Of a stretch of 32,000 nucleotides of DNA, positions 2,755 through 32,000 are shown in pieces. The stretch lies in NCBI GenBank assembly GCA_965227835.1, contig OZ245768.1, forward strand, positions 900,001 through 932,000, given 5' to 3'. Source of the DNA: Candidatus Saccharimonadota bacterium. GTDB lineage: Bacteria > Patescibacteriota > Gracilibacteria > BD1-5 > UBA6164. Numbering within the stretch: position 1 is the stretch's first letter; each line of letters begins with the position of its first letter. The notes under the pieces are model-generated. The model was not told the DNA's origin. It saw only the letters and a program-made list of their open reading frames with translations, and did not search any database. Made by a program: the position numbers and the translations under genes.

Positions 2755-2773
2755 GTAAACTTATTTTAAAGTT

Positions 2774-3544: not shown

Positions 3545-3574
3545 TTTTAACCAAAAAACCTTTATATAAAAATT

Positions 3575-9700: not shown

Positions 9701-10222
9701 AGTAAGATAGTCATTGAAAAACTCTTTTCTTACTACTTCTACATCAAATCTTGATACTAGATCTTCAAAATCACTTACAGTTTTATCCAAATATTTCTCT
9801 GGAGTTTTGGTTTTTTCTCACTCTCATAGCAAAAAACTATATCTTTTAGGATTTGAAGTTTGAGTTTCTCACCATGATTTTTTTAGAGTCAGGAGTGATA
9901 ATCTCCAAGAAGGGCTATGATCACTATAAAATACTATAAGTGCATTTTCTACTCACTTACTCTCCATAATCTTGAAAGCATCTCTTGTAAGAGTAATTCT
10001 TGGATCATTTTTTGATCTCTGCTTGATTTCAAAAATACTTACTTCTTTATCCAAAATGATTTTTCATAACTCAAAGCAACTATCCTTTTCAAAAAACACC
10101 GTTTTTCTATCAATTTGGATTAGTTTGATATCTTCATCAAAATTATCTCCAAATAATCTTACTCTTAGATAATTTAAAAAATCTCTTCTATTTTCTAAAT
10201 TATATGCTTTATTAAATATCAT
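6761..10222 (-). CDS. type IIG restriction endonuclease / gamma-class N6-adenine DNA methyltransferase fusion (1153 aa)
   Basis: Track ORFs 6761..7003, 8792..9163 and 9596..9790 share one frame and join when TGA = Gly. N-terminal candidate PD-(D/E)xK motif (ILDKEVSIFEIKQ). Also VPFLNGGLF, FGAFYTPREIV (motif X), LDPAIGSGAF (motif I), YGVDI, RLRFWLSLV, IGNPPYIG (motif IV), RGKRKGDMLEMYATPISNVPI and a C-terminal YGLSEEEIKIVE. Confidence 0.92.
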
Positions 10223-10234
10223 TTACTCTTAAAA

Positions 10235-10453
10235 TTACATACTAATTACATATTACTTTGGCTTAAGATAAGGAAAATTATTTTAATAAAAGTCTTTCAG
10301 TTACATACCGGTTACATAGATTATGCCCAATATGGAACATATATTACACTTATTGTGTTTAAAATTCTATATTGTGTTAATTTTTTTCGCTATTTGGTGG
10401 TTATATTATATTAAATATACATCTTTTATTGTGTTTAGAATTCTTTATTGTGT
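10235..10453 (-). promoter_or_regulatory. repeat-dense upstream region of the type IIG gene (4x TTACATA, 4x TATTGTGT)
   Basis: TTACATA at 10235, 10246, 10301 and 10312, as pairs spaced 11 bp. TATTGTGT at 10351, 10370, 10427 and 10446, as pairs spaced 19 bp within two 28-nt direct repeats (10350-10377 and 10427-10454). Confidence 0.4.
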
Positions 10454-12109
10454 GGTTTTTATATAAAACCAATCTCATCTTGATCACTTTCTAACTAATT
10501 CTATTAATTTTTTAGATTTCATATTTCTAAAAATATTTTTACATTGATCATCAGTTAATTCTGGAAACATATCTTTAAGATCAGACAATTTAACCTTTCA
10601 AAACTCATCAATATGTTGTAAAACTAAATCATATTTATGTTGTGTCTTTACTCATTTACTTCTAATATATGATCATGTTTTTCATAATTTTGAAGATAAC
10701 TCAGCTGATATATAACATTTCTGAGTTCTTGTTCATCTTATTTCTATATATTTATTTGATTTTAAAGATTCTGCCTCCTTCTTGGTAAAATCAATATTTA
10801 TAGTATTTTTTCAACTTGCAATTTTATCTAATAATAATAAATCATCTAATTCAATATCTGTTCTTTTAGATACTAATTTTGCAAAATCTTCATTTTCAAT
10901 TCTTCATGAAACTATAAAATCTACCCTATTTTCTCTTTGAAAAAATCTAATAGTAGTTCATTTTCTTAATTGAGCTAAATAAGCCTTTTGAAGACCTCAT
11001 CTTTCCTTTTCCATTAAGTTTAAATGTAAGAAAAACTCTGACATAATTGGATTTAAGTATTCTTTTGACTGATTTTCTTTTAATACTTTTTCTAAATCAG
11101 CTCTAAATACTCATGGATTTCTAAATTCTAATGAAACTGGTGTTTGAATTATTTCATTCCATAAATTTATAGTCCAATCTCTATGAGCAAGTGCATTTAT
11201 TAAAAGTTCTTCAATAGTTGCTTTCTCATCATATTGCCTTATATCTGTTCTAAATAAATCAATATCCTTTAAATAAGTATTAAATCTATTTATATTATAT
11301 TTTACTCTTTCTAATGTTAAAATAAGAGGAGCTTTTTGATCTTCTATACTCATTCTTTCTTCTATATCATTCTTAGAATCCATGTATTTCCATGAAATTT
11401 TATTTCTTTCCATAATATATTTATCACTTATACTTGTTTTTCATAAAAATAAAATACAAGTATTATTAGGTATATTATCTGTTAATAATCATATTGAGTT
11501 TAATAAGTTTTTTAAAGGCATATTTAACCATTTGTCATCTTTTTTAGCTTCTTTTAATTTTTCTCTTAAGTATGTAACTGCATTTTCATCTAGGTCTTCT
11601 AATGTAGTTCATTCACATACTAATGAAGACCAATCAATTTTAACTAGAGGTTCATTTAATATTTCTATTTCTTTTTCAGAGGTCATATACTCAAGATTAT
11701 CACCTATTCTTTGATATTTTTTATTATGGGCAATAACTATTTTTCTAGGATTATGCTTTGGAATTTCGAAAATCCATACTATTTTTCATGTATCTTCTGT
11801 TTTATATTCTTTTATATCAAATTTTTCACTATCTAAATTCAATGTATTTCATAAAATTCTTTGTTTTATGTTCTCAATTGTATATCAAGAAAAAGATTTT
11901 ATTCATTTTATATCCAATGTTTCATCTTCTACTCAAACTATCAGAAAACCACCTTCAACATTTGAAAGTCATGATATATAAGAAATTACATCTTCTTTTT
12001 CTCTTCATGAAATATTTTGTTTTAATGACGAGAATTCTTTATGTTCAATATTTTTATTTTCCTTAGGAAATTGTAATTTAATATATTCTTTTAAATCTTT
12101 TTCTAACAT
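10445..12109 (-). CDS. AlbA_2 (Schlafen-like) / HATPase_c_4-like protein with C-terminal wHTH-like tail (554 aa)
   Basis: N-terminal ISGLSNVEGGFLIVGVEDE (AlbA_2-type). Central EELLINALAHRDW, the signature of the RecG-like 'putative transcriptional regulator' family. In frame with track ORF 11111..11413. ATG 12109-12107, TAA 10447-10445. Confidence 0.85.
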
Positions 12110-12120
12110 ATTAAAATAGT

Positions 12121-15100
12121 TTATTTATTAAATTCCTCACTGATTATTAAATCAAGTGTTTCTTCGTTGAAGTTTTTTGATACTTCTAATATTCATTTCA
12201 GATATTCTTCAGTAATCAATTCTTTAATTAGTTCAGCATCTTTTTGCCAAGTAGTTTTTGTGATTTTTCTTATTTTCTTCATATATACAAGAGGAAGACC
12301 TCAAAGTTTAATTACCTCTTTTAAAAGATTGAAATAATTATCATCAGTTTCATTGTATATATCTTCTGCATTTTCATATGCTTTTTTTTGCTGAATATTC
12401 ATATTAGAATCAGCATGAGGGTTTTTTATTTCTTTTTTCAATTTTTCATATGATTTATAAAAACCTTTTGTAACTTCTTTAGGTTCTTCTGTAAGTTCTG
12501 ATTTAAATAAGTTAAATGCTTCCACTAAACTCAAAGGTTCAACTTGAGATGTTTTCTCATTATAGAAGTAAAAAATTAAGTTGGATTTTTTCTTAGCAAA
12601 AACTAATACTCATTTTACTCATTTATTTATGGTTCTTAAAACTCTTGTCCTCCTAGGAATTTTTTCAATTTTATCTAATATTTCAGGATCGATTTCTTGA
12701 GCTTTCTTAAAGTCATTTAAAAACTCACTATCCCAAGATTTATCTTCATTTAAAGTTGTATCTTCTAAAATAGCTTTTTTATAAAATGATCATACCTCCT
12801 CATCTCATGACAGTGTTTTTACATCTACTCATAAGACTGTAGCTATCATTTTTATCTTTAATTTTGATATTTTCTTAATATTTACATGTTCTTCTCAAAC
12901 TATTGATGGAAAATAATTATATACATATAAATTATCAAATACTTTTTTATTAATTCTGTTTATTCTTCAAATTCTTTGAATTACTTTTGTTGGATTATAT
13001 GGTATATCATAATTTATAATCACTCATGCTCTATGAAGATTATATCATTCTGATATAGCATCAGTTCAAAGCAATATATCATAATCATTTTTTTGTTTAC
13101 TTTCTTCAACTCATGCATCAAAATTTAGCCTAACTTGTTCTTTTAGAGTATCTGTTTTATGTTTTCAAGTAACAACAAGTACTCTATCGTTTAATTTCTC
13201 TTGTAAATATAGGATAGTATCTGCAAACATAGAAAAAACTATTATTTTCCTCGTCTCATCTTCCTGTCTAATTTCTTGTATTTTTTCTACAAAAGTATCT
13301 AGTTTCGGATCGTTTTTTATGCTTTCCCACTTTTGTAATAAATCATTTAAAAACTTTCTATCATATTTTAAATCATCTATAAATTTTTGACTTAAGTCTG
13401 ACTTTGGAATTAAAATTCAATCTTTTGACTCGATTAATTCTTTCACCTTCTCTACACTTTCTGATATTTCTAAATCTTCATCAAATACATCATCAATATT
13501 TGGCAGTCCTCATTTTTTAATTACAGGAACTCCATGAAGTAATTCTAAATAGTTAAAAATATTATCAATAGAATTAACAATTGATGTAAGAGTCTTTTTA
13601 AATGAATATATCGAGCTTTCAAATCTAGATACTAATAATCTCCTTATAAAAGATGGCATATTTTTTTGTCTTCATTCTAAAAGTGCATACTCATATCATA
13701 GTGTTTCTTCAATTTCTTTTTGATATTTATCTGGATTATTCAAATATGTTAATATTTTATATCTTGCTCACTTAAAATAAACAGGATTTCACTGATTATC
13801 TGCATCTACCAGTTGTTCCAAAGTTTCAGTATAAAGATCTTCTATATCATCCAATGGAAAGTTTAATTCTTTTGGATCTGATACATTTGCAAATTCATAT
13901 CACTCTTTTTCTAAATCTTCTCTATAGCTATCTATATTTTGTAAATCTACTCTTGATCTTCTAACGACCACGGGTCATATAATTTGCCTTATTTCTTCAG
14001 AGAGTTTTTTCACTTTTTTTAATGTCTCTTCTTCGCTCGTTAATGAATTTTTTCCATCTTTTCTTATTTCCAAATATTTATTTTGTAACTCTCCAAAATC
14101 ATTTATTAATCATTTTTTTGTATGAATAGTTGGATTTGCTGGTATTTGAAATAACTTTATAAGGTTAAATATATCTTCAGGTTTATTATTAAAAGGAGTA
14201 GCAGATAATAAAATAACTTTTTTTCAATGACATATTTGGTGTAAATTTCAATAATCTATTGTTTCAGCATTTCTATATTTATGTGCTTCATCTATTAATA
14301 CTACTTCAGCCTTATGAATATCATGATTATCATATAAAAATGCCTTATCTATACTTCATGAACTAAAGATTTCAGCCTTTAAATTAAAATCTTTTACATA
14401 TTCCTTCCACAAATCTATTAAATGAGGAGGACATATAATAAGTGCTTTTTTATCTATATTTCAAAGTAAAGTTGATCAAATAATTGATTTTCATAATCAT
14501 ACTACATCAGCAATTATTACTCAGTTATGCTCATTAATTATTTTTAATCCTTTTTTTATTGCATCAACTTGATATTCTAGGTTAGAAAATTTCTCTTTTG
14601 TTAAATCTTTGGGTGTTTTTATTCACTGCTCATCTTTAAAATATTCATATAATAGTCTGATATAACAATAATATGGTTTTGTAAGTTTTAACCATGTTTC
14701 TTGCTTTAGCATTTTAACAACATCATCATTGTCTCATCAATTAGTTATTGAAATTGAATAATTCTTCCAAATATCCTCAAACATACCTTGAGCCATATTA
14801 TAATTATCTGGAACTCTATCTATAGTGTTATATTCAAATCTTCACGATAGTCATGAATATGTTAAATTGCTTGATCATGATATTACCGTTCAAGGAAGTG
14901 TTCATCACATTGAAAAATCTCCATCATGAGAAAAAAGATACAGTTTTGTATGGTTTGGATCTATAGTTCTTCTAATTTCTAAGCTTCCGTCTATAATCTT
15001 ATCTATATATATTTGAACAGCTTCTGATCATTCTAAATTATCAAGAGTTTCTGTTTTATTAAAAATATCTTTTAGTTGTTTTATTGTATCTGATTTAGTA

Positions 15101-15336
15101 GCAGTTTTAAATCATACTTCATTTACTTTTATAGCAGAATTAACAATTGATATTTCTGCATTCATACCAATAAGTATTCTAACTTTTTTATCTATTAGCT
15201 CCTTATATATCTCTTTAAAACCTGAAAAATAAAAAAAACCAACTAAAATATCCATTTTTGAAGTAGCTGGTAATATTTTTGTTATTATTTCAGATAATAG
15301 TACATCAGTATTTGTTATTGCTTTATAAAAAGACAT
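12121..15336 (-). CDS. PLD (HKD) nuclease domain fused to SF2 (SNF2/DEAH-like) helicase (1071 aa)
   Basis: DILVGFFYFSGF, HTKLYLFSHD (HxK..D), GSSNLTYSG, then helicase motifs ADVVGLGKS (I), LIDEAHKYRN (II), LLSATPFNN (III), LLGTDAISEGYNLH (V) and QRIGRINR (VI). Track ORFs 15112..15336 and 12301..12534 are in frame. Confidence 0.92.
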
Positions 15337-15356
15337 TTTCCCTTTAAAATTTAAAT

Positions 15357-15385
15357 ATTATAATAACCTAGTTTTTACGGGTAAA
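15357..15385 (-). promoter_or_regulatory. candidate promoter of the defence-like operon (TTTACC-N17-TATAAT)
   Basis: TATAAT on the minus strand at 15362-15357. The -35 overlaps the palindrome TTTTTAC-GG-GTAAAAA (15372-15387). Confidence 0.3.
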
Positions 15386-15411: not shown

Positions 15412-15458
15412 CTAGCAAAAAACAAATAAAAAGAAAAGTTTTTCTAAACTTTTCTTTT
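15412..15458 (-). terminator. candidate terminator after znuB
   Basis: A 13-bp A/T-rich stem AAAAGAAAAGTTT / AAACTTTTCTTTT (15429-15441 / 15446-15458), followed on the minus strand by a U-rich tract. The stem overlaps the znuB stop codon. Confidence 0.4.
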
Positions 15459-16244
15459 TATTACTAAACTCAAAACAAAAAAAGTAATCAAAATCAAAAC
15501 AATAGTAGCTCAACTAGAAGTGTCTAAAAAATATGAAATAAAAAGACCTAAAATCACACCAAGTACTGATAAAAAACTAGAAATTAAAAAAGATAGCTTT
15601 AAATTAGGTGAAATAATTTTTGAAATATTAGCAGGAATAACTAAAAAAGCTCAAATAAGAAGTATTCAAAATATTTTTATACTTATAGCTATAAACAAAG
15701 ATAAAAATATCAAAAAAACTAAGTTGTAAATATCAACATTCAATCATCTTGATTTAGCCAAATCCTCATTTATTATTACACTGATAAATTTTCTTCAAAA
15801 AAAGAAGAAAAATATAGATAAGAAAAATAGTAAAAAAGACAAAATTAATATATCAAAAGAAGATATAAAAAGAATAGATCAAAATAAAAAACTTTTTATA
15901 TCCAGAGTCAAATTGCCAAGAAATCAAGTGATAAAAATTCATCCAGATATTCAAATTTGTGCTATTATTTCTTTTGTAGACTCTTTTGTAATAAACTTGG
16001 TTTTTTCTATAAAAAAAATAGAAAAACTTCAAATTATTCAAAACAAAAAAGAAAATAAATAATAATTTCAATTAAAAAGCAAAGAAACAGCAATTCATAA
16101 AAACAAAAAATTAGATATAGAATGAGTTACATTTGCCTCCTTTCTCATAACAATAAATATACCTAAAAAAGAAGCAATAATAGATATTAAAACTCATCAA
16201 ATAATTGCTTTTTGAAAAAATGGATATTGTAGTATTTCAAACAT
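15444..16244 (-). CDS. znuB: ABC-3 family metal (zinc) transporter permease (266 aa)
   Basis: GGVLISIIASFLGIFIVMRKEA, LFGSILFISSFDI, INEDLAKSRGLNV and GILLIGAFLVIPA are typical ZnuB/ABC-3 blocks. Confidence 0.85.
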
Positions 16245-16337
16245 AATATAAATTTATTTATTTTTCTGCCAAAATGTTAATTTTTTCGGGATTCCCTTAA
16301 GATTCTAAATAAAAGATAATTCTTTTATTTTTGGGGG

Positions 16338-16495
16338 CAACAGAGAGCTTTAGCTCTTTGAACAAAGAAATTTCCCAGACAAGGGGTTTTAACCCCTTGC
16401 AAAATTCAACCCTTTGAACAAAGCAATTTACAGTCAACAGAGGGCTTTAGCTTTCTGATTTCATGTCCTTTTCAACAGAGAGCTTTAGCTCTTTG
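16338..16495. repeat. cluster of REP-like GC-rich hairpin repeats inside the znuC-znuB spacer
   Basis: CAACAGAG[AG]GCTTTAGCT[CT]T[TC]TG occurs at 16338-16360, 16435-16457 and 16473-16495. CTTTGAACAAAG occurs at 16356-16367 and 16412-16423. CAAGGGG-TTTTAA-CCCCTTG lies at 16380-16399. Confidence 0.6.
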
Positions 16496-16591
16496 CTATT
16501 TTAGGAAGTTTTTATTTGCTTGTTATTTATCCTATATACAGTAAAACAATTTGCACCTTAGTTTACTATAGAAGATCTCTTCAAAATATAA

Positions 16592-17326
16592 TTAGTTTTT
16601 ACAATTCTTATGGGAGCTATGAGAATTAGGATTGTGTTTGTAAGGTGAAATATAGTTTCAAAAAATATTTTTAATAATAGGATTAGATTCAATTTCACTA
16701 GGGGTTCAATGACAACAAAAATTGTTATCATGAAGACAAACTACTTTATCACAGTTGCTATAGACCAAATTTATATTATGAGAAACTAGTATTATAGATA
16801 TATGTGGAAAAATATCTTTAACCTCTTTTATAATTTTATAAAAAACTTCTTCTCAAACTATATCAATTCAAGCTGTAGGTTCATCAAGTAAAATTAAATC
16901 TGGATTTTTTAAAAGAGAAGAAACTACCAAAATTTTTTGAAGTTGTCATCAGCTCAATTTATCAACTCTTTTGTTTACAAGATCTTTAGAATTAAATTTA
17001 GATAAAAGATTTTCTATATCCTCCCTATTTACCTTTTCGTTATATACTTTTATAAATTCACTTACCAAAATAGGAAAAGATTCATCTAAATTAATCTTTT
17101 GAGGTACATATGAAAGTTTTTTATAATTTCTAAATATATTTCAAGAAATTGGTTTTTGTATCCCTGCTATTACTTTTAGTAAACTTGATTTTCAAGCACC
17201 ATTTAGTCATATAATACTAAGTATTTCTCAAGAAAAAACGGAAAAACTTATGTTTTTTAAAACATAAGTTTTTTTGTTATCATAAGATAAATTGATGTTT
17301 TTTAATTTTAATACTTCCCTATTCAT
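16592..17326 (-). CDS. znuC: ABC transporter ATP-binding protein (244 aa)
   Basis: Walker A GLNGAGKSS (two Gly = TGA), signature LSGGQLQK, Walker B LILLDEPTAGID. The start ATG overlaps the znuA stop (ATGAATAG). Confidence 0.9.
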
Positions 17327-18422
17327 ATATTTTTTCAAGTGCTTTTAAATTGTTACTATAATTATTTATATATCAATTTTTAGAATCATCACTTCAAAAA
17401 GGATTTAATATATCAACTTCCAAACTATAATCCAAAGCAAGTTTATCTAAATTGGAATCTTTAAATTGAGGTTCTTTATAAAAATTCTTTACTCAGTGTT
17501 TTGTTATTTCATCTATAATTTCTTTCATTTCTAAAGAATTTGGATCACTTAAAACATTTGTTCTAAATACAAGTTTTTTACTACTATCTATATTTAGTTC
17601 TGAAAAAAGATAGGAGTAAGCATCATGGAAAACTATAAACTCAGATTGAGTTTTTCAACTGATTCTATCCAAAAAGCTTTGCTTAATTCATAGTAATTCC
17701 TTTTCTAGAGATTCGTAGTTATTAGAAAAATAATTAGAATTTTGTGGCTGGATTTCTGAAAGTTTAGATTCTATATTTTTTGCAATAAGTAAAGCATTTT
17801 CTGCAGAAGTCCAAACATGTGGATCAAGTTCATGTCAATTTTCATAGTGGTCATCTTGATGTTCATCTTTATAATCATTTTCATTATGTTCTTCTCAATG
17901 GTGATCATCGTCATGAGTTTCACTATGTTTTTTATAATTTTTTTCTAAGTGGTTTTCCTCATCATGATTTTTATCTTCGTGATTTTCCTCATCATGATGT
18001 TCGTCTTCGTGGTGTTCATCTTCGTGATGATGATGATCATCTGATCATTCAATCATTTCTATTCATTTAGTAGTAATTAAAACATTTTTATCTTCCAAAG
18101 CTTTATCTAAAAATCAGTCAATATGGTCATATCCAAGTGAAAGTATAAGGTAAGATTCTTGAATTTGTATCATTTGACTCGGTTTTAAATCAAATCCATG
18201 AGGGCTAACTCATGCTGGAACAAGTGATTTTGCTTCTACATAATCTCAACCAATATAATTAGTAATAGAAGCAAGTGGAATAATAGAAGTAGTAATTTGT
18301 AATTTTTCAGCTTGTTTTTCAATATTAGTATTTTTTTGTGAGATTTGTTTTGTATTTTGGTTATTACAAGAAACAAGTAAAAAAGATAGCACAAGTATAA
18401 TAAATAAAGATATTTTTTTCAT
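17319..18422 (-). CDS. znuA: zinc ABC transporter substrate-binding lipoprotein with His/Asp/Glu-rich loop (367 aa)
   Basis: Lipobox LLVSC. SPHGFDLKPSQ and DPHVWTS metal-ligand blocks. Long loop DDHHHHEDEHHEDEHHDEENHEDKNHDEENH..., whose antisense is track ORF 17819..18070. Confidence 0.9.
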
Positions 18423-18535
18423 AGAAATATTTTTTTAAATAATAAAGTATATATTAAGAAAACCCTGAAAAATTCATTTAAAAGAAAAAAAATCTTCAGC
18501 CTTTCCTTAATAACCTTCAAAGAAGATATGAAAAA

Positions 18536-19489
18536 TTAACATCTATCAAAAAATACACTGTTTAATAGAGTATTTTGCATTTCCTGTTTATCTATATTTT
18601 TTCAAATAAAAACAATTCTTGATAATTTGTCTTTTTTATCCCATCTTTCATCAACTATGAGGGTAAAACTTGATCATGCTTTTTGAATTATATATCTATC
18701 TTTTGGATAATCTTTAAAATGTATAAATCATTTTACCCTAAAGACATCATCAGGTAAATCTCATAAAAATTGTTTCATATTTTCAAGTGTATAACATGGT
18801 TCTTCTGTTTTAAAAAAATACTCAGATATTCAATTGTCATGATGATGGTGATGATGATGTAGTTTTTTTTCTATTTCATCGTTCATTTCAAAACTTGTAG
18901 TATCAAGTATATAGTTCAAATCAACTTTACCATAATTTGTCTCAATAATTACACAATATTTATTTAGTTCTTTTATTGTTTTTTTTATTTGATCTATTTC
19001 TTCTTTTGAAACTCAATCTACTTTGTTTAATATCGCAAAATTGGCAAATTCAATTTGTTCAAAGGTAGTAGCTAGTTCTTTCATAAAATTTGATCTAAAA
19101 TTTATAGCATCTATCAAACATACTATACTATCAAGTTTTACTCTTCATCAAAAATCAGTCATAAAAAAAGTTTGAGCTATTGGAAGAGGTTCACTCATAC
19201 CTGAAGCTTCAATTATCAAATAATCAAAATCTTTTCAGCTATCAAGAAGTTTTTTTACTCCCTCTATAAAATCTCATCTAACAGTACAACACATACATCA
19301 ATTTTGTATTTCAATAATTTCTTGTGTACTTTTTTCAATTAATTCTCAATCAATGGATTCTTCTCAAAATTCATTTTCTATTACTGCTATTTTATATCCC
19401 TGCTTATTTTTCAAAATATGGTTAAGAAGAGAAGTTTTTCCTGATCATAAAAATCAAGTTAATATTGTTACTGGTATTATTTTTTGCAT
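18536..19489 (-). CDS. COG0523 (CobW/ZigA/YjiA-type) metallochaperone GTPase (317 aa)
   Basis: PVTILTGFLGSGKTSLLNHIL P-loop, GCMCCT (CxCC), His7 tract (KLHHHHHHHD). Confidence 0.9.
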
Positions 19490-19502
19490 AATCAAAGTTA
19501 TA

Positions 19503-20717
19503 TTAATTTTCTATTATTTGCCATTTGGGCAAAGGATCTGAAAAATTTTTCCAAATTTCTGGATTTTCCATTTCTTCTTTTGTGAGTAATGCATAATCAA
19601 GAAATCAAATTATTTCATCATTATTCATATCTACTCAAATAACTACTATTTCATTTCTTCTATCTCAAAAAGGTTTATCTCAAAATTCTTTTTCATATTC
19701 TTCATTTTGTTCTTTGGAATAAGAAATTCTCTCTTGTTTTGAAAAACTTCACATCCATCTTCACATTGGGTCTATTTTGATACTTCATCAGGCAAGACTC
19801 CAATTTCAAGCTATATCATTTCTAGAAGCTAACCAAAAAACACCTTTGGATCTGACAACTCAAGCCCAATTTTTATTAACAGCTTGCATAAATCTTTCAG
19901 GATGAAATGGTTTTTCTTTTTTATAAATAAATGAACTTATTCAATATTCTTCAGTTTCTGGAGTATGATTTATATGCCCTCATGATTCTAATTCTTTTAT
20001 CCATAAAGGACTAGAACTTGCCTTATCAAAATCAAAAAGTCAGGTATCAACTACATTTTTTATATCTATTTTTGAATTTATTGTTTCAATTATTTTTGCT
20101 TCACTTTGAAGTGATTTAATAATTCATTTTATATAATGAAGTTCCTCTTTTGAAACAAGATCACATTTATTTAAAATAATTATGTTACAAAACTCAATTT
20201 GCTCTACAATTAGATTTACAAGTGGTCTATCATCATTTTCATCAATTCACATTTTTATGTCAGCAAGTGTTTTATCACTTCCAAATTGATTTATAAAATT
20301 ATTGGCATCCACTACTGTTACCATGGTATCAAGATATGCCCATTTTCATAAATCAATACCTGTTTGCTCATCTACATAAGTAAATGTTTGTGCTACAGGA
20401 ACTGGTTCAGATATTCAAGATGACTCAATGATAAGAGCATCATATTTTCACTCCTTAGCTAATTTTTCCACTTCTATAAGCAAATCTTCTCTCAAGGTAC
20501 AACACACACATCAATTATCTAACTCTACAAGTTTTTCTTCAGTTTGGGATAAGTTATTTTCATTTTTTACTATATTTGCATCAATATTTACCTCTCACAT
20601 ATCATTTACTATAAGAGCAACTTTTTTATCTCATCTTTGACTCAAAATATGATTTAAAAGAGTTGTCTTGCCAGCTCATAAAAATCAAGATAAGACTGTT
20701 ACAGGGATTTTTTTCAT
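19503..20717 (-). CDS. COG0523 metallochaperone GTPase, long paralogue (404 aa)
   Basis: PVTVLSGFLGAGKTTLLNHIL (two Gly = TGA), GCVCCT, ILNKCDL. Confidence 0.9.
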
Positions 20718-20734
20718 CTTTTATTTTAAATAAA

Positions 20735-21905: not shown

Positions 21906-22703
21906 TACAATTAAAAAGTTATGTAAAAAATAATATTTTTAAATGGCAATAAATTTTATAAATAAAAAAATATGGAAAATAATAGCTTAAATATAAAGGA
22001 AAGAAACCTACTACCTAAAGATAGATTAAAAACTATTCTAAGTCATGAAGATTTCAGGGATTATGAAAGAATGTTTGAAGAATCAGAAGGTGTCATGTCT
22101 TGGCATAAATTGGAAAAATGTACTAAATTCTATAAAGATAGAAGATTGAAAGGTATAGAGTGGAAAGGAGACTTAAACTTAAAACGAAAAAACATAACAA
22201 ATTTAGAAAAATTAACAAAAGTTCAGGGAGATTTAGATTTAGAATGAACATCTATAACAAGCTTAGAAAATTTGAAAAAAGTTTGAGGAAATTTGAATTT
22301 GAGGTGAACATTTATAACAAAATTAGAAAATTTGGAAACAGTTTTATGACGGTTAAGTCTAGAATGAACACCTATATCAAGTTTATGAAAGCTGACAAAA
22401 GTTTTAGGGTCGTTGAATTTAAGATGAACTTCTTTAACAAATTTAGGAAATTTAGAAATAGTTTGAGATTTTATAGCTCTACACAGAGCATCCATAACAG
22501 ATTTATGAAAGCTAAAAGAAGTTAGAGGAGACTTAAATTTAAACTATACAAAAATAAAAAGCTTAGGAAATGTAACAAAAATCCAAGGGAAACTAATTTT
22601 AAGTTTAAGTTATATAAAAGATTTATGAAAATTAAAAAAAATTTGAGGAAATTTAGATTTAAGATGAATAAACAGAAGGGATGTAGAAAATATGATAAAG
22701 GAA

Positions 22704-23321
22704 GTAAATATCTACCAGTAGAACTGGTAGCTTTAAATGGAAGCCCCTAGAAGGGGCTAAAATAGTTTTTACCAGTTTAAATCTAACTGATTTCCATCAA
22801 TGGTTTTATCCTTATGTTGCTGATGTTGAACATAATTTTTTATCATATCCAAGTCAAGTCAAACTGTACTTACATAGTATCATCTACTCCAGAAATTCTT
22901 CGAGTACAGTCATTTCTTCTTACTATGTTTGTTATGAAGTATTATTGCACTCTTTCATTTCAATCTTCACAGAATTTCTGCAACAGAGTATTTTGGAGAT
23001 ATCCTCAAAACGAGATGAACATGATCTATCGTTATATTTCATTTTAATATCTCAAAATCATATCTCTTTGCAAGTTCATGAAATGTGTCTCGTATATCTT
23101 TTCTAACTGATTGAAAAAGTATTTTTTTTCGGTACTTTGGTACCACCACTATGTGGTAAGTGCAGTCCCAATTCACATGGGACTGCTTTGCGTATTTGTG
23201 GGACATATCTTTAAAAAGTTATTCCCCTCCTAGGTGCTTCCTAGAAGATTATACACAACTACCGGAACGGTAAAACCTCCACTACTCGCACCAGCAGAGC
23301 TGGTGGTTTAGTGTTGGATTA
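22704..23321 (-). mobile_element. IS200/IS605-family element (tnpA only), copy 1
   Basis: By eye the 618 bp match copy 2, and the shared antisense track ORFs are identical. No terminal inverted repeats and no target duplication. Subterminal hairpins CTACCAGTAGAACTGGTAG, AGCCCCTAGAAGGGGCT and CACCAGCAGAGCTGGTG. Confidence 0.9.
22769..23206 (-). CDS. tnpA: IS200-type Y1 (HUH) transposase (145 aa)
   Basis: YHIVVVPKYRKKIL, DHVHLVL (HUH), LKGKSA and FWSRGYYVSTVG (catalytic Tyr). Five in-frame TGA fall at Gly positions. Confidence 0.92.
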
Positions 23322-23813
23322 ATTAAAGATAAAAAAATATATATATGAGGTGAAATTAATTATGATTGAAAAGACATTTATCAAGAATTTTCAACTTTCT
23401 TTAAATACTTGTGAAAATTTGATGATCTAAATTTAGATAATTCAAAAATAGAGGAAAGTAAAGAAAAATTTATCAAAAAATACTGAACTAGTAAAACGAA
23501 AAGATCAGATTCAGTTAAAAAAGATTTAAATTTAACTGCAAACATACTTTATTACTTTTTTGTTGATAATTTTATAAAAGAATGAGATAAAATTAAAAAA
23601 AGAATAAATAAGTTAAAGAAAAGTAATAAAGATGAAGAAAGTATAAAAAAAGAAAAATTAAATTTAAAGTTAGCATTATATAATAAGCTAGAAGAAAAAT
23701 TTAATGAAATAAAGTATTACTTTTGAGAAGATATTAAAAAAAGATTAGAAGATGAATTTAAAAAGGAAATGACAAAGAATAGTGATGATAATTAAATTTT
23801 TATTTAAAAAATA

Positions 23814-25142
23814 ATGGTAGATAAAAACAACATTTTCAAAGAAAATTTAACTCCTAAAGATAGATTAAAAACTATTCTAAGTCATGAAGATTTCAAGGAT
23901 TATGAAAGAATGGTTGAAGAATCTTACGGTAAAATATCTTGGGAGAAATTGGAAGAATATAGTGAATTTGATGAAAATCAAAACTTGAAAGGTATATATT
24001 GGAAAGGTGATTTAGATTTAAGTTCAACTAAAATCACAAGCCTAGGTAATTTAAATAAAGTTTGAGGAGATTTAGATTTAAGATGGGTTCCTATAACAAG
24101 CTTAGGTAGTTTAAATAAAATTTGAGGAAATTTAAATTTAATATGAACTCCTATAAAAAGCTTAAGCAATTTAAATGAAGTTTGAGGAGATTTATATTTA
24201 TATTGAACTCCTTTAACAAGCCTAAGTAATTTAAATGAAGTTTGAGGAGATTTAAATTTAAGATTAACTCCTATAACAAATTTAGGAGAATTACAAAAAG
24301 TTTGAGGAAGTTTAGGGTTAAGATGAACCCCTTTAACAAGCCTAAGTAATTTAAATGAAGTTTGAGGAGATTTATATTTAAGCTGAACTTCTATAACAAA
24401 TTTAGGAGAATTACAAAAAGTTTGAGGAGAATTACATTTAAGCTGAACTCCTTTAATAAGCCTAAGTAATTTAAATGAAGTTTGAGGAGATTTATACTTA
24501 GGCTGAACTTCTATAACAAATTTAGGAGAATTAAGGAAAGTTTGAGGAGATTTAGATTTAAGCTGAACTCCTTTAATAAGCCTAAGTAATTTAAATGAAG
24601 TTTGAGGAGATTTATATTTAATATGATTATCTAAAAAAAATATAAGAAATATAAAAAAAGAAATAAGAAATAAAAAAATACATATATGAAAAGAAATTAT
24701 ATGCTATGATAGGAGTAATATTTATCAAGAATTTTCAATTTTCTTTGACTACTTGTGAGAATTTAATGATGATGAAAATTTAGATAATTCAAAAATAGAA
24801 GAAAGTAAAGAAAAATTTATCGAAAAATACTGATACGGTAGTGCTAAAAGATCAGATTCAGTTAAAAAAGATTTAAACTTAATTGCAAATATATTTTACT
24901 ATTTTATTGTTGATAACTTCATAGAAGAATGAGAAAAAATTAAAAAAATAATAAAAGAATTAAAAAAAAGTAATAAAAATGAAAAAAGTATAAAAGAAGA
25001 AAAATTAAATTTAAGGTTAAAATTACATAATAAGCTAGAAGAAAAATTTAATGAAATAAGGCATTACTTTTGAGAAGATATTAAAAAAAGATTAGAAGAT
25101 GAATTTAAAAAGGAAATGACAAAGAATAGTGATGATAATTAA
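23814..25142 (+). CDS. LRR-like family paralogue 2 (442 aa; about 10 repeat units)
   Basis: MVDKNN... N-module (track ORF 23814..24065), followed in frame by 60-bp repeats and the C-module. Ends ..EFKKEMTKNSDDN-TAA. Confidence 0.85.
24006..24626 (+). repeat. 60-bp (20-codon) tandem coding repeat, about 10.3 units
   Basis: Exact 60-nt phasing. Unit consensus is G-[DNE]-L-x-L-x-G-T-[PS]-[IL]-[TI]-[SN]-L-[GS]-[NE]-L-x-[KE]-V-G, with the flanking Gly usually TGA. Confidence 0.9.
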
Positions 25143-25160
25143 ATTTTTATTTAAAAAATA

Positions 25161-26126
25161 ATGGTAGATAAAAATAACATTCTAGAAGAAGAATTAACAT
25201 CTAAAGATAGATTAAAAGAAATTTTAAGTCCTGAAGATTTCAAAGACTATGAAAGAATGATCGAAGAATCTAACGGTGAAATATCTTGGGAGAAATTAGA
25301 AAAATATAGTGAGTTTGATGAAAATCAAAACCTGATAGGGATATTTTGGGAGGATAATTTGGATTTAGATCAAACTGAAATAACAAGCTTGTGAAAGATA
25401 AAAGAAGTTTGAGGTTCTCTATGTTTAAGATTTACTAACATAATAAGCCTAGGAGATTTAGAAAAAGTTTGAAGATGGTTAAATTTAAGCTGAACCCCTA
25501 TAACAAACTTAGGAAATTTAAAAAAAGTCTGAGGATCTCTAAATTTATCTTTTACTAATCTAATAAGCTTAGGAAATTTAGAATATATTTGATTAAATTT
25601 AGATTTAAGATTAGTCCCAAAAAAAAATATAATAAATATAAGAAAAGAAATAAAAAATAAAAAAATACATATATGATGAGAAATCATATATGACTGAAAA
25701 TATATTTATGAAAAATTTTCAACTTTCTTTAACTACTTATGAGAATTTAATAATGATGAAAGTTTGGATAATTCGAAAATAGAGGAAAGTAAAAAAAAGT
25801 TTATAAATAAGTACTGATACGGTAGTGCTAAAAGATCAGATTCAGTTAAAAAAGATTTAAACTTAATTGCAAATATATTTTACTATTTTATTGTTGATAA
25901 CTTCATAGAAGAATGAGAAAAAATTAAAAAAATAATAAAAGAATTAAAAAAAAGTAATAAAAATGAAAAAAGTATAAAAGAAGAAAAATTAAATTTAAGG
26001 TTAACATTACATAATAAGCTAGAAGAAAAATTTAGTGAAATAAATAATTACTTTTGAGAAGATATTAAAAAAAGATTAGAAGATGAATTTAAAAAGGAAA
26101 TGGAAGGGTATGGTAACCATAAATAA
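25161..26126 (+). CDS. LRR-like family paralogue 3 (321 aa; about 4 units)
   Basis: Same three-module architecture. The C-module variant ends ..EFKKEMEGYGNHK-TAA. Confidence 0.85.
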
Positions 26127-26144
26127 TTTTTTATTTAAAAATTA

Positions 26145-28415
26145 ATGGTAAATAAAAATAACATTCTTGAAGAAAAATTAACACCTAAAGATAGACTAAG
26201 AATTATTCTAACTCCTGAAGATTTCAAGGACTATGAAAGAATGGTTGAAGAATCAGAAGGTATTATTTCTTGGGAGAAATTGGAAGAATATAGTGAGTTT
26301 GATGAAAATCAAAACTTGATAGGTATATATTGGAAAGGTGATTTAGATTTAAGTTCAACTAAAATCACAAGCCTAGGTAATTTAAATAAAGTTTGAGGAG
26401 ATTTAGATTTAAGATGGGTTCCTATAACAAGCTTAGGTAGTTTAAATAAAATTTGAGGAAATTTAAATTTAATATGAACTCCTATAAAAAGCTTAAGCAA
26501 TTTAAATGAAGTTTGAGGAGATTTAGATTTATATTGAACTCCTTTAACAAGCCTAAGTAATTTAAATGAAGTTTGAGGAGATTTAAATTTAAGATTAACT
26601 CCTATAACAAATTTAGGAGAATTACAAAAAGTTTGAGGAGATTTAGATTTATATTGAACACCTTTAACAAGCCTAAGTAATTTAAATGAAGTTTGAGGAG
26701 ATTTATATTTAAGCTGAACTTCTATAACAAATTTAGGAGAATTACAAAAAGTTTGAGGAGAATTACATTTAAGCTGAACTCCTTTAATAAGCCTAAGTAA
26801 TTTAAATGAAGTTTGAGGAAATTTACGTTTAAGTCAAACTCCAATAGAAAGCCTAGGAAATTTAAATAAAGTTTGAGGAAATTTAAAGTTAGGTCTAACT
26901 CCAATAGAAAGCCTAGGAAATTTAAATGAAGTTTGAGGAAATTTAGATTTAGATCAAACTGATATAACAAGCTTAGGAAATTTAAATAAAGTTTGAGGAA
27001 ATTTGAATTTAAGATGATTATCTAGAAAAAATATAATAAATATAAGAAAAGAAATAAGAAATAAAAAAATACATATATGAGGTGAAATTAATTACGATTG
27101 AGAAGATATTTATGAAGAATTTTCAACTTTCTTTGATTATTTATGAAAGTTTGATGATGATGCAAATTTAGATAATTCAAAAATAGAAAAAGAAAAACAG
27201 GAATTTATCAAAAAATACTGAACCAATAAAACGAAAAAATCAGATTCAGTAAAAAAAGATTTAAATTTAACTGCAAACATATTTTTTTACTTTTTGGTAG
27301 ATAATTTTATAGAAGAATGAGATAAAACTAAAAATCAGATAGAAGAATTAAAAAAAAGTAGTAAAGATAAAAAAAGTATAAAAAAAGAAAAACTAAATTT
27401 AAAGTTAGCATTAGATAATAAGATAGAAGAAAAATTTAGTGAAATAAGTCATTACTTTTGAGAAGAAATAAAAAAAAGATTAGAAGATGAATTTAAAAGA
27501 GAAATGATGATAGATAAAAATAATATTCCCGAAGAAAAGTTAACACCTAAAGATAGATTAAAGAAAATTCTAACTCCTGAAGATTTCAAAAATTATGAAA
27601 GAATGGTTAAAGAATCTTACGGTAGAATAACTTGGAGAAGATTAGAGGAATATAGTGAATTTGATGAAAATCAAAAGTTGAAAGGTATATATCGGAAAAA
27701 TAATTTCAATTTATATTGAATTAAAATAACAAGCTTAGGAAATTTAAAATATGTTTGAGGAGAGTTAAATTTAAGTTGGAGCTCTATAACAAGCTTAGGT
27801 AATTTAGAAGAAGTTTGAGAAGACTTATATTTAAGGTGAGTTCCTATAACAAGCTTAGGTAATTTAAAAAAAGTTTGAGGAGAGTTAAATTTAAAATTAG
27901 TACCAAGAAAAAATATAATAAATATAAGAAAAGAAATAAGAAATAAAAAAATACATATATGAAAAGAAATTATATGCTATGATAGGAGTAATATTTATCA
28001 AGAATTTTCAACTTTCTTTAACTACTTATGAGAATTTAATAATGATGAAAGTTTGGATAATTCGAAAATAGAGGAAAGTAAAAAAAAGTTTATAAATAAG
28101 TACTGATACGGTAGTGCTAAAAGATCAGATTCAGTTAAAAAAGATTTAAACTTAATTGCAAATATATTTTACTATTTTATTGTTGATAACTTCATAGAAG
28201 AATGAGAAAAAATTAAAAAAATAATAAAAGAATTAAAAAAAAGTAATAAAAATGAAAAAAGTATAAAAGAAGAAAAATTAAATTTAAGGTTAACATTACA
28301 TAATAAGCTAGAAGAAAAATTTAGTGAAATAAATAATTACTTTTGAGAAGATATTAAAAAAAGATTAGAAGATGAATTTAAAAAGGAAATGGAAGGGTAT
28401 GGTAACCATAAATAA
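26145..28415 (+). CDS. LRR-like family paralogues 4+5 fused in frame (756 aa)
   Basis: A complete paralogue (about 11 units plus C-module) runs without a stop into a second N-module at 27504 (..EFKREM-MIDKNN..). Both halves are in frame (26145 and 27504 are both 0 mod 3). Ends TAA 28413-28415. Confidence 0.7.
26337..27017 (+). repeat. 60-bp tandem coding repeat, about 11.3 units
   Basis: Same unit as 24006-24626. Confidence 0.9.
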
Positions 28416-28433
28416 TTTTTTATTTAAAAATTA

Positions 28434-29399
28434 ATGGTAAATAAAAATAACATTCTTGAAGAAAAATTAACACCTAAAGATAGACTAAAAGAAATTTTAA
28501 GTCCTGAAGATTTCAAGGATTATGAAAGAATGGTTGAAGAATCTAACAATAAGATATCTTGGGAAAAATTGGAAGAATATAGTGAATTTGACGAAAATTC
28601 AAATTTGAAAGGCATATATTGGATAGATGATTTAATTTTATATTCAACTTCAATAACAAGCTTAGGGAAATTTGAAGAAGTTTGAGGAAATTTATTTTTG
28701 TGTGAAACTCCAATAGAAAGCCTAGGAAATTTAAAATATGTTTGAGGAAATTTAGAATTAATATTAATTTCTATAACAAGTCTAGGAAATCTAAAGGAAG
28801 TTTGAGGAAGTTTAAATTTAGGTCAAACTCCTATAACAAGTCTAGGAAATCTAAAAGAAGTTTGAGGATTTTTAATTTTAAGATGAATATCAAGAAAAAA
28901 CATAATAAATATAAGAAAAGAAATAAGAAATAAAAAAATACATATATGAAATAAAATTATATATTATTGAGAAGGTATTTATGAAGAATTTTCAATTTTC
29001 TTTAACTACTTGTGAGAATTTAATGATGATTCAAATTTAGATAATTCAGAAATAGAAGAAGAAAAACAGGAATTTATCGAAAAATACTGATACGGTAGTG
29101 CTAAAAGATCAGATTCAGTAAAAAAAGACTTAAATTTAACTGCAAACATACTTTATTACTTTTTTGTTGATAATTTTATAAAAGAATGAGATAAAATTAA
29201 AAAAAGAATAAAGAAGCTAAAGAAAAGTAATAAAGATGAAGAAAGGATAAAAAAAGAAAAATTAAATTTAAAGTTAGCATTATATAATAAGCTAGAAGAA
29301 AAATTTAATGAAATAAATAATTACTTTTGAAGAGATATTAAAAAAAGATTAGAGGATGAATTTGAAAAGGAAATGGAAGGGTATGGTAACCATAAATAA
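28434..29399 (+). CDS. LRR-like family paralogue 6 (321 aa; about 4 units)
   Basis: Translated through by hand with no TAA/TAG until 29397-29399. Confidence 0.85.
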
Positions 29400-29417
29400 C
29401 TTTTTATTTAAAAATTA

Positions 29418-30665
29418 ATGGTAGATAAAAATAACATTCTTGAAGAAAAATTAACACCTAAAGATAAACTAAAAATTATTCTAAATCCTGAAGATTTCAA
29501 GGATTATGAAAGAATGGTTGAAGAATCAGAAGGTATTATTTCTTGGGAGAAATTGGAAGAATATAGTGAGTTTGATGAAAATCAAAACTTGAAAGGTATA
29601 TATTGGAAAGGTGATTTAGATTTAAGTTCAACTAAAATCACAAGCTTAGGTAAATTAAAATATGTTTGAGGAGATTTAGATTTAAGATGGGTTCCTATAA
29701 CAAGCTTAGGTAGTTTAAATAAAATTTGAGGAAATTTAAATTTAATATGAACTCCTATAAAAAGCTTAAGCAATTTAAATGAAGTTTGAGGAGATTTATA
29801 TTTATATTGAACTCCTTTAACAAGCCTAAGTAATTTAAATGAAGTTTGAGGAGATTTAAATTTAAGATTAACTCCTATAACAAATTTAGGAGAATTACAA
29901 AAAGTTTGAGGAAGTTTAGGGTTAAGATGAACCCCTTTAACAAGCCTAAGTAATTTAAATGAAGTTTGAGGAGAATTACATTTAAGCTGAACTCCTTTAA
30001 TAAGCCTAAGTAATTTAAATGAAGTTTGAGGAAATTTATACTTAGGCTGAACTTCTATAACAAATTTAGGAGAATTAAGGAAAGTTTGAGGAGATTTATA
30101 TTTAATATGATTATCTAAAAAAAATATAATAAATATAAGAAAAGAAATAAAAAATAAAAAAATACATATATGATGAGAAATCATATATGACTGAAAATAT
30201 ATTTATGAAAAATTTTCAATTTTCTTTGACTACTTGTGAGAATTTAATGATGATGAAAATTTAGATAATTCAAAAATAGAAAAAGAAAAACAGGAATTTA
30301 TCGAAAAATACTGATACAGTAGTGCTAAAAGATCAGATTCAGTTAAAAAAGATTTAAATTTAATTGCAAATATATTTTACTATTTTATTGTTGATAACTT
30401 CATAGAAGAATGAGAAAAAATTAAAAAAATAATAAAAGAATTAAAAAAAAGTAATAAAAATGAAAAAAGTATAAAAGAAGAAAAATTAAATTTAAGGTTA
30501 AAATTACATAATAAGCTAGAAGAAAAATTTAATGAAATAAATCATTACTTTTGAGAAGATATTAAAAAAAGATTAGAAGATGAATTTAAAATGGAAATGA
30601 CAAAGAATAGTGATGATAGTAAATATCTACCAGTAGAACTGGTAGCTTTAAATGGAAGCCCCTAG
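29418..30665 (+). CDS. LRR-like family paralogue 7 (415 aa; about 8 units), 3' end rewritten by IS insertion
   Basis: The family terminus ..SDDN-stop is replaced by ..SDD-SKYLPVELVALNGSP-TAG, which is read from IS sequence. Confidence 0.8.
29610..30110 (+). repeat. 60-bp tandem coding repeat, about 8.3 units
   Basis: Same unit as 24006-24626. It lacks exactly two units (120 bp) relative to paralogue 2. Confidence 0.9.
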
Positions 30666-31236
30666 AAGGGGCTAAAATAGTTTTTACCAGTTTAAATCTA
30701 ACTGATTTCCATCAATGGTTTTATCCTTATGTTGCTGATGTTGAACATAATTTTTTATCATATCCAAGTCAAGTCAAACTGTACTTACATAGTATCATCT
30801 ACTCCAGAAATTCTTCGAGTACAGTCATTTCTTCTTACTATGTTTGTTATGAAGTATTATTGCACTCTTTCATTTCAATCTTCACAGAATTTCTGCAACA
30901 GAGTATTTTGGAGATATCCTCAAAACGAGATGAACATGATCTATCGTTATATTTCATTTTAATATCTCAAAATCATATCTCTTTGCAAGTTCATGAAATG
31001 TGTCTCGTATATCTTTTCTAACTGATTGAAAAAGTATTTTTTTTCGGTACTTTGGTACCACCACTATGTGGTAAGTGCAGTCCCAATTCACATGGGACTG
31101 CTTTGCGTATTTGTGGGACATATCTTTAAAAAGTTATTCCCCTCCTAGGTGCTTCCTAGAAGATTATACACAACTACCGGAACGGTAAAACCTCCACTAC
31201 TCGCACCAGCAGAGCTGGTGGTTTAGTGTTGGATTA
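30619..31236 (-). mobile_element. IS200/IS605-family element, copy 2
   Basis: Offset of 7915 bp from copy 1 in the same orientation. Intact paralogue junctions (e.g. 25134-25150 GATGATA/ATTAAATTT) serve as the empty site. Confidence 0.9.
30684..31121 (-). CDS. tnpA: IS200-type Y1 transposase (145 aa), copy 2
   Basis: Same sequence as 22769..23206, shifted by 7915 bp. Confidence 0.92.
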
Positions 31237-31259
31237 ATTAAATTTTTATTTAAAAAATA

Positions 31260-31679
31260 ATGGTAGATAAAAATAACATTCTTGAAGAAAAATTAACACC
31301 TAAAGATAGACTAAGAATTATTCTAACTCCTGAAGATTTCAAGGACTATGAAAGAATGGTTGAAGAATCTTACGGTAAAATATCTTGGGAGAAATTGGAA
31401 GAATATAGTGAATTTGATGAAAATCAAAACTTGAAAGGTATATATTGGAAGGGGAATTTAGATTTAAGTTGAACTTCTATAACAAGCTTAGGGAAATTAA
31501 AATATGTTTGAGGATATTTAGATTTAAAATGGACACCTATAACCGATTTAGAATATTTAGAGAAAATTTGAGGATATTTAGACCTAGAATCAACTTACAT
31601 AAAAGATTTATGAGAATTAAAAGAAGTTTGGGGAAGTTTAAATTTAGCTTGAACTAAAGGGACCTCTGCAAAAAGATAG
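31260..31679 (+). pseudogene. LRR-like family paralogue 8, truncated (139 aa; N-module plus about 3 units, no C-module)
   Basis: The repeat pattern breaks at about 31659 (..SLNLAGTK/GTSAKR-TAG), immediately before the IS5-type element. Confidence 0.6.
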
Positions 31680-32000
31680 ATTTAAATTACAAAAATATAA
31701 TAAAAAGATTAAAATATGATAAATATTTTAATTTTTTTTTAATGATTATGTCACCATTTAAAGAACAACAAACATTTTTGAATTATTTCCAAAATGAGTT
31801 ATGAATTACAAGAACAGAAAAGTTTCTAACAAAATTAGATAAAGTAGTCCCATGGGAATCAATATCAAATAAAATTAATTTATCTAGAGAAATATCAGAT
31901 TGATGAGTTTGAAGACCAAGAATGGAAATACAAAAAATGTTAAAAATACTATTTCTTCAATGACTATATGGATTATCAGATCCGGAAATAGAAGATCAAA
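31659..32000 (+). mobile_element. IS5/IS1182-type insertion sequence, left part (continues off the window)
   Basis: The candidate terminal sequence GGGACCTCTGCAAAAAG starts where the LRR reading pattern is lost. The transposase gene starts 83 bp later. Confidence 0.45.
31742..32000 (+). CDS. IS5/IS1182-family transposase, N-terminal DUF772-like part (partial)
   Basis: ..GGVGRPRMEIQKMLKILFLQGLYGLSDPEIEDQ.. matches the InsH-type N-terminal block (GRP...LLQ.LY.LSD). It has in-frame TGA = Gly. Confidence 0.75.

Follow-up and report, generated by a model that had tools for sequence, protein, structure and literature searches.

The window analysed here, a stretch of 32,000 nucleotides (positions 900,001 to 932,000, forward strand, of contig OZ245768.1, assembly GCA_965227835.1) from a bacterium listed as Candidatus Saccharimonadota and placed by GTDB in the Gracilibacteria (BD1-5; UBA6164), carries on its plus strand, from 21972 to ~31679, a head-to-tail row of eight paralogous genes for leucine-rich repeat (LRR) proteins, one fused pair among them. 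The paralogues are designated P1 to P7, with the two halves of the fused pair as P4a and P4b; P2 and P6 correspond to paralogues 2 and 7 of an earlier, sequence-only reading of the same DNA. They are separated by conserved spacers of 18 bp and present a background pairwise identity of 72-90%, with P1 as the most diverged member (~72-75% against the others). Every copy has its own ATG, the conserved spacer and a full-length frame, the truncations observed being caused by insertion sequence (IS) elements, and the reading frames stay open over all junctions of the array. These genes are mosaics of one another, to a statistically significant degree, and their lengths have changed in phase with a 60-bp unit that encodes the LRR.

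Recognition of these genes depends on the genetic code. The window has a G+C content of 25% and contains almost no long open reading frames (ORFs) under the standard code (table 11), but reading TGA as a sense codon produces a dense gene map. Two CobW-type GTPases and an ABC ATPase have TGA codons at invariant glycines of their Walker A motifs, and TGA likewise stands at conserved glycines of the ABC signature LSGGQ, of SNF2 motif I and of the IS200 transposase TnpA. Decoding them as tryptophan would turn the Walker A sequences GFLGSGKT and GAGKS into WFLWSGKT and GAWKS, the ABC signature LSGGQ into LSWWQ, the SNF2 motif GLGKS into WLWKS and the TnpA sequence LKGKSA into LKWKSA. Within the array, TGA is used 101 times and TGG 16 times. 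Since TGA falls on invariant glycines of unrelated proteins, a tryptophan assignment (code 4) is ruled out and the applicable code is table 25, in which UGA encodes glycine. Among species-representative genomes, the CobW-type gene beside the array finds its closest matches in two Candidatus Gracilibacteria metagenome-assembled genomes (73% identity), the next match being at 55%, and the bacterium most likely belongs to that group. The public records for this family (P0001-P0005 and P0062-P0067) have been translated with tryptophan at TGA, which introduces ~13 wrong residues per 321 and erases the repeat glycines in VGG and xGT; P3 translated in this manner is the database protein P0001. These mistranslations probably explain why the LRRs have gone without annotation.

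The encoded proteins follow a common plan, with a helical N-cap or N-module of ~65 residues, a run of 20-residue LRRs, a short C-cap and a helical C-module of ~140 to ~170 residues. The consensus derived from 51 repeat units is xLxLxxTxITSLGNLxKVGG, with invariant leucines at unit positions 4 and 12 and the greatest variability at positions 1, 3, 5, 6 and 8. Tandem Repeats Finder reported periods of 60 bp and 120 bp, the 120-bp super-period outscoring the 60-bp one in P2 and P4a. A phmmer search against PDB sequences matched chain 0 of 8Z5U, the Vibrio protein FlrP, over 162 residues (E=9.1e-15), and this structure has been described by its depositors as a typical LRR beta-solenoid (10.64898/2025.12.04.692373). 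Among remote homologues, some have precomputed assignments to PF12799, PF00560 or PF01030. Pfam LRR models (LRR_1, LRR_4, LRR_8 and similar) gave no match to P2 or P3 at E<=1, no family model from Pfam, NCBIfam, PADLOC or PHROGs matches the paralogues, and NCBIfam returned only a trace SspH2 match (E=0.14). AlphaFold models of the database sequences, with tryptophan in place of glycine, show helices and a periodic solenoid with one strand per repeat over residues 10-175 at a pLDDT (per-residue model confidence) of ~90, and a helical C-terminus past residue ~175 at low confidence; the best Foldseek matches in the PDB were the LRR domains of SspH1 and IpaH, without reaching significance (E ~0.1). 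The 60-bp repeat encodes an LRR of the bacterial, 20-residue type. The sequence-only reading had also called the repeats LRRs, a label that holds only if TGA is decoded as glycine and not as a stop or as tryptophan. The residues that vary beside the conserved beta-strand leucines form the usual ligand-binding face of an LRR, which suggests diversification of a binding surface. No signal peptide was detected in the paralogue proteins, and no Pfam or NCBIfam domain in the C-module, where the NEL E3 ubiquitin-ligase domain is absent. At 50% identity, relatives of the C-module form just six clusters out of 1.84 billion representatives, all from one family, and by this measure the module is nearly orphan.

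The number of repeat units differs widely between copies (Table 1), and its fractional part is 0.3 in each of the seven copies counted (P1, P2, P3, P4a, P4b, P5 and P6), so that the lengths remain in 60-bp phase. The junction within the fused gene (27480-27530) reads …EFKREM|MIDKNN…, and the fusion is the product of a ~42-bp deletion that took the tail codons, the stop codon and the spacer.

Table 1. Coordinates in the window of the LRR paralogues, shared tracts, repeat-unit indels, insertion sequences and diagnostic TGA codons.
Feature	Position	Strand	Remarks
P1, N-module and LRR part	21972..22702	+	8.3 LRR units; interrupted by IS200 copy a
P1, C-module	23328..23795	+	displaced from P1 LRR region by IS200 copy a
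P2	23814..25142	+	442 aa; 10.3 LRR units
P3	25161..26126	+	321 aa; 4.3 LRR units
P4	26145..28415	+	756 aa; in-frame fusion of P4a and P4b
P4a	26145-27506	+	11.3 LRR units
P4b	27507-28415	+	3.3 LRR units
P5	28434..29399	+	321 aa; 4.3 LRR units
P6	29418..30617	+	8.3 LRR units; ORF to 30665
P7	31260..31679	+	~3.4 LRR units, then cut off by IS5-type element
486-bp tract, one copy (donor or recipient)	25714..26199	+	P3 C-module, spacer, P4 start
486-bp tract, second copy	28003..28488	+	P4b C-module, spacer, P5 start
P2/P4a tract	23990..24488	+	matches P4a 26321-26819 at offset 2331; exact runs of 205, 113 and 159 bp
311-bp maximal exact tract	24060..24370 = 29664-29974	+	LRR units 1-6 of P2 and P6
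P2 LRR unit 7, missing from P6	~24369-24428	+	first 60-bp indel; start anywhere in 24358-24371
P2 LRR unit 10, missing from P6	~24549-24608	+	second 60-bp indel; start anywhere in 24538-24555
Colinear duplication (period 3273 bp), copy 1	24454..26832	+	P2 tail, P3, P4a head
Colinear duplication (period 3273 bp), copy 2	27727-30105	+	P4b, P5, P6 head
IS200 copy a	22703..23327	-	625 bp; tnpA 23206..22769 (145 aa); between P1 LRR region and C-module
IS200 copy b	30618..31242	-	625 bp; tnpA 31121..30684; replaces P6 stop
IS5-type element	left end ~31659, into 31659-32000	+	DUF772 transposase N-terminus from ~31742
TGA-at-glycine examples	18536-20720, 16592-17344, 12121-15357		P-loops, ABC signature, SNF2 motif I

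Comparison of the paralogues revealed long blocks of identity between non-adjacent copies. The sequence-only reading had proposed three such blocks, judged identical by eye, and exact alignment bears them out. The longest is a maximal exact repeat of 486 bp at an offset of 2289 bp (486/486) that starts 100 bp inside the C-module of P3, crosses the stop codon and the 18-bp spacer and ends 55 bp into the next gene. Positions 23975-24190 match the sequence 2331 bp downstream at 215 of 216 sites, the sole mismatch lying at 23989, and the maximal exact tract at this offset (23990-24194, 205 bp) is followed by further exact runs at 24196-24308 (113 bp) and 24330-24488 (159 bp). The resulting P2/P4a tract is therefore interrupted only at 24195 and at eight sites of unit 6 (24309-24329), and it ends at an exact unit boundary, the end of unit 8. 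The third block, 24066-24370, is matched at an offset of 5604 bp in all of its 305 positions and lies within a maximal exact tract of 311 bp. Identity in these tracts extends to synonymous sites, the stop codon and the 18-bp spacer, and the sequence directly beside them shows 80% identity at the same offset, with tract edges falling inside modules. Both copies of each tract are retained in the array, as in non-reciprocal transfer, and either could be the donor. The near-identical antisense ORFs that had been cited alongside these blocks result from reading identical DNA on its opposite strand. Long antisense ORFs over the LRR repeats, found on the minus strand at 23924-24703, 26231-27091 and 29504-30202, translate to KSPQTSFKLLRLIKGVQLK… repeats. 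They owe their length solely to the absence of stops from the repeat in the frame concerned, and they have no independent support as genes.

Length differences between the copies follow the repeat unit. The LRR region of P6 is 120 bp shorter than that of P2, as had been claimed, but the proposed two-unit indel did not hold as one block: two separate gaps of 60 bp leave 6 mismatches in 498 bp, and the best single gap of 120 bp leaves 37, which rules out a single deletion. The units missing from P6 are units 7 and 10 of P2, and units 7, 8 and 9 of P6 match units 8, 9 and 11 of P2 at 60/60, 59/60 and 18/18 positions. The 311-bp tract stops where the first of these indels starts. The placement of both indels is ambiguous over 14-18 bp, which denotes flanking direct repeats. 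On a larger scale, a colinear duplication with a period of 3273 bp, at 87% identity overall and from 67% to 100% along its length, indicates that whole multi-gene blocks have been copied as well.

To evaluate these patterns statistically, the seven inter-LRR segments (J), each comprising a C-module, the spacer and the next N-module, were aligned, yielding 81 informative sites. The four-gamete test failed for 45% of informative site pairs, and a statistic of the pairwise homoplasy index (PHI) type took a value of 0.205 against 0.446 +/- 0.02 after shuffling (0 of 5000 shuffles, p<2e-4). In a GENECONV-type permutation of the longest shared tract, with polymorphic columns shuffled, segment pairs J3/J5, J2/J5 and J2/J3 were globally significant (0 of 5000 shuffles) and four further pairs reached global p values of 0.002-0.014. 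Since no shuffle in 5000 attained the runs observed for several pairs, the identical blocks lie far beyond chance expectation. The identity of the sharing partners also changes along the segments: for instance, P2 goes with P4b where the C-module begins, P3 equals P4b in mid-module, and further along P1, P5 and partly P4a group together. A nearest-donor map in steps of 60 bp showed partner switches every 60-300 bp in all genes, and over the 675 bp in which P2, P4a and P6 are colinear the odd one out is first P2 (16 sites), next P6 (5 sites) and finally P4a (9 sites). Tracts disregard gene and module boundaries, and within the LRR region the breakpoints sit at unit boundaries. The claim that sequence neighbouring the blocks is diverged is upheld by the 72-90% identity of the paralogues outside them. 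The four-gamete, PHI-type and tract tests, the switching of partners and the in-phase lengths agree with the interpretation that gene conversion and unequal crossing-over had been at work.

Taken together, these results make it likely that the array, in a bacterium with UGA as a glycine codon, is a set of recombining tandem LRR paralogues, rendered mosaic by gene conversion and by unequal crossing-over or slippage. With copies that are 72-90% identical, equally oriented and 18 bp apart, general homologous recombination would act on them, presumably through a RecA-type pathway. Non-reciprocal gene conversion would copy tracts of ~50 to ~500 bp between paralogues, across module boundaries, and misaligned but in-register pairing of 60-bp units or of whole genes, through unequal crossing-over or replication slippage, would gain or lose units, fuse genes and duplicate blocks. 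The outcome would be mosaic genes that differ chiefly in repeat number and in the residues beside the beta-strand leucines, and their products would be variable binding proteins. Such events may be recent or ongoing, to judge from the 100% identity of the converted tracts, silent and intergenic sites included, and of the two IS200 copies (625/625), against a surrounding divergence of 10-28%; in calling the recombination ongoing outright, the sequence-only reading went further than these data. As for function, any part played in dealings with host cells, prey cells or phage is a guess.

The main rival is that reads of different paralogues or strains were joined in the assembly or its consensus, in which case the array in the cell would have fewer mosaics or another arrangement. 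We consider this improbable for the pattern as a whole, though it could apply to the large-scale arrangement. It draws support from the source being a 1.49-Mb contig of an uncultured-type lineage, from exact repeats (486 and 625 bp) longer than typical short reads, and from a related contig (L001) that ends ~1 kb past its single family member. Artefactual joining, however, is at odds with frames that are open at every junction and keep the 60-bp phase, with clean IS200 junctions sharing a common ATTAAA flank, and with a signal that comes from dozens of sites over all seven segments and not just from a few long tracts. Many of the exchanged patches, moreover, span 20-150 bp, and assembly cannot have made mosaic patches that are shorter than a single read. 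Serial duplication without exchange, with identical blocks as recent tandem duplicates and the diverged parts as older ones, would account for the colinear three-gene duplication of 3273-bp period and conforms to the way in which tandem arrays expand, but it predicts a tree-like pattern. Instead, 45% of site pairs fit no single tree and partners change, the tract offsets of 2289, 2331 and 5604 lie off the 3273-bp diagonal, and tracts begin and end within modules with 80% identity right beside them, all of which leaves duplication alone as a highly improbable account.

Marginally more credit, still of a low order, can be given to programmed diversification, either from a cassette store of the vls or pilS type or by a diversity-generating retroelement. 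The variable residues are on the predicted binding face and the genes, 18 bp apart, are maybe under one upstream promoter region, as such a system might have it. Yet the ATG, conserved spacer and full-length frame of every copy imply that none is a silent cassette, the tracts cross intergenic spacers and the conserved C-module, and the ORFs examined include neither a reverse transcriptase nor a site-specific recombinase. A retroelement-type mechanism is disfavoured by the substitution spectrum, which consists mainly of A/G and C/T transitions and is not adenine-specific. The least credible of the alternatives, to the point of being nearly negligible, is that purifying selection on a protein or RNA element has kept stretches identical. 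The C-module is indeed the most conserved part of the family, but the identity takes in all synonymous positions as well as the stop codon and the spacer of 18 bp, other paralogues vary freely at the same positions, and no Rfam family was detected in the window.

Several observations nonetheless weigh against the reading of the array as recombining paralogues that encode variable binding proteins. Recombination genes are absent from the window, and exact repeats of 486 and 625 bp are of the type that short-read assemblers mis-join. The order and number of genes are provisional, as is the ongoing nature of the exchange. No closely related array was found in the genome, metagenome and viral collections searched. 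The structure models were built from mistranslated database sequences with tryptophan for glycine, and the combination of no family-model matches and no signal peptide leaves a binding or interaction role without direct support.

The array bears resemblance to several known systems. In plant resistance clusters such as Cf-4/Cf-9, Rp1 and Xa21, tandem LRR paralogues undergo unequal crossing-over that alters LRR number and conversion that makes mosaics, and variation is concentrated at the xLxLxx beta-strand positions. Tandem LRR paralogues, changes in repeat number, mosaics and beta-strand-position variation are likewise present here, but the plant clusters are eukaryotic, recombine in meiosis and encode receptor or NB-ARC domains, in contrast with the small bacterial proteins and orphan helical C-module of the array. 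Among bacteria, the Mycoplasma MgPar/mgpB and vlp/vsa, Borrelia vlsE, Neisseria pilE/pilS, Treponema tprK and Anaplasma msp2 systems generate mosaic genes by RecA-type exchange of short tracts, and the classical antigenic-variation systems combine one expression site with truncated silent cassettes and exported surface antigens. The array shares with these families the exchange of short tracts between paralogues in small-genome, host-dependent bacteria, and departs from them in that its copies have start codons, are full length and lack a signal peptide. A NEL ubiquitin-ligase domain forms the C-terminal part of IpaH and SspH, and YopM-type proteins vary in repeat number. The 20-residue repeat length is common to the array, FlrP, IpaH, SspH and YopM, and its proteins also show sequence similarity to FlrP; unlike FlrP, IpaH and SspH, they have neither a signal peptide nor a NEL domain. 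FlrP itself carries a signal peptide of the Sec type, and its binding partner is the flagellar rod (10.64898/2025.12.04.692373).

A search of the literature on LRR families in Gracilibacteria and Absconditabacteria returned only a parallel from the Saccharibacteria, where genomes of clade T1 are reported to contain 12-24 LRR proteins each, with a proposed role in host adherence (10.1101/2020.04.29.069278). Both cases involve an expanded LRR family in ultrasmall episymbiotic bacteria, but the Saccharibacteria are another phylum with another LRR type (COG4886), and recombination between LRR copies is not described in the portions of that study drawn on here (10.1101/2020.04.29.069278). The novelty of the present locus lies in the LRR family, in an orphan architecture confined to code-25 bacteria and in the lineage; the recombination mechanism itself is textbook.

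Relatives of the family were identified elsewhere. The public protein P0064 (795 aa) is a second double-length, fused member, which indicates that fusions recur in this LRR family, and P0067 is a member without a full repeat unit. A distant tandem set of three genes is present in GCA_054004595.1 (L002), and a single member was found on the ENA contig L001 mentioned above. The source contig itself also encodes P0063, an intact near-copy that shares 95% identity with P7 and 98% with P0004; the latter looks like the displaced C-terminal remainder of P7, located beyond the window.

The insertion sequences that interrupt the array were also characterised. The two IS200 copies are identical (625/625), encode a Y1 (HUH) transposase (Pfam Y1_Tnp, E=9e-35) and present subterminal hairpins (z about -4) without terminal inverted repeats, with ATTAAA as the right flank of both; the Y1_Tnp match rules out the 625-bp repeat as an intron or structured RNA. 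They are typical of the IS200/IS605 family, except for the TGA-encoded glycines in TnpA. Copy b replaces the native stop of P6 at 30618, and the P6 ORF extends 16 codons into the element, whereas the IS5-type element cuts P7 after SLNLAGTK. Scans for Rfam families and tRNAs returned no matches in the window, and a scan for sigma-70 promoters detected 75 sites against 71.7 expected in shuffled sequence, an absence of excess that allows no inference on transcription units.

Upstream of the array, on the minus strand, lies a defence-type trio (6761-15357) composed of a type IIG restriction-methyltransferase (Eco57I/MmeI-like, PADLOC E=1e-95), a Schlafen/AlbA_2 protein and an HKD(PLD)+SNF2 helicase that matches DrmD-like and HKD+Snf2 models. 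With this trio and the IS elements around it, the LRR array has a neighbourhood in which defence genes and mobile elements abound. Also on the minus strand, an apparent zinc-acquisition cluster (15444-20720), identified by reading translations, comprises ZnuB-, ZnuC- and ZnuA-like ABC genes, the ZnuA-like protein with a His/Asp/Glu-rich loop, followed by two adjoining CobW/ZigA-type GTPase paralogues. A second small tandem family at 649-2486 consists of three paralogues encoding secreted proteins of ~155 residues with the signal peptide MKTLKNIFLTSI(L/I)L…; one leader sequence (…KRFDFLFFICKIHFNVFLNLLKEEDK) recurs ahead of all three genes, and the family had no Pfam match. Ordinary genes at 2759-4084 encode a CHC2 zinc-finger (DnaG-type) protein and an O6-methylguanine-DNA methyltransferase of the Ogt/Ada type.

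These results have implications for the annotation and the biology of the lineage. Database entries with tryptophan for glycine mask the LRR signature in profile searches and weaken structure prediction. Members of the Gracilibacteria, which live as episymbionts or predators, have barely been cultured, if at all. An LRR family confined to this lineage, expanded, tandem, variable on its predicted binding face and recombining makes the array a reasonable candidate for partner recognition, as well as a concrete locus for time-series or long-read metagenomes. It is conceivable, although on balance doubtful, that the array constitutes a recognition repertoire, in which a stock of LRR binders, cytoplasmic or exported by an unconventional route, would be continually re-sorted through conversion and the gain or loss of units to track surface molecules of host or prey, or phage proteins; the type IIG restriction enzyme and the HKD-SNF2 helicase are neighbours of the array. 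If that were true, it would be a bacterial counterpart of plant resistance-gene clusters or of the assembly of variable lymphocyte receptors in lampreys.

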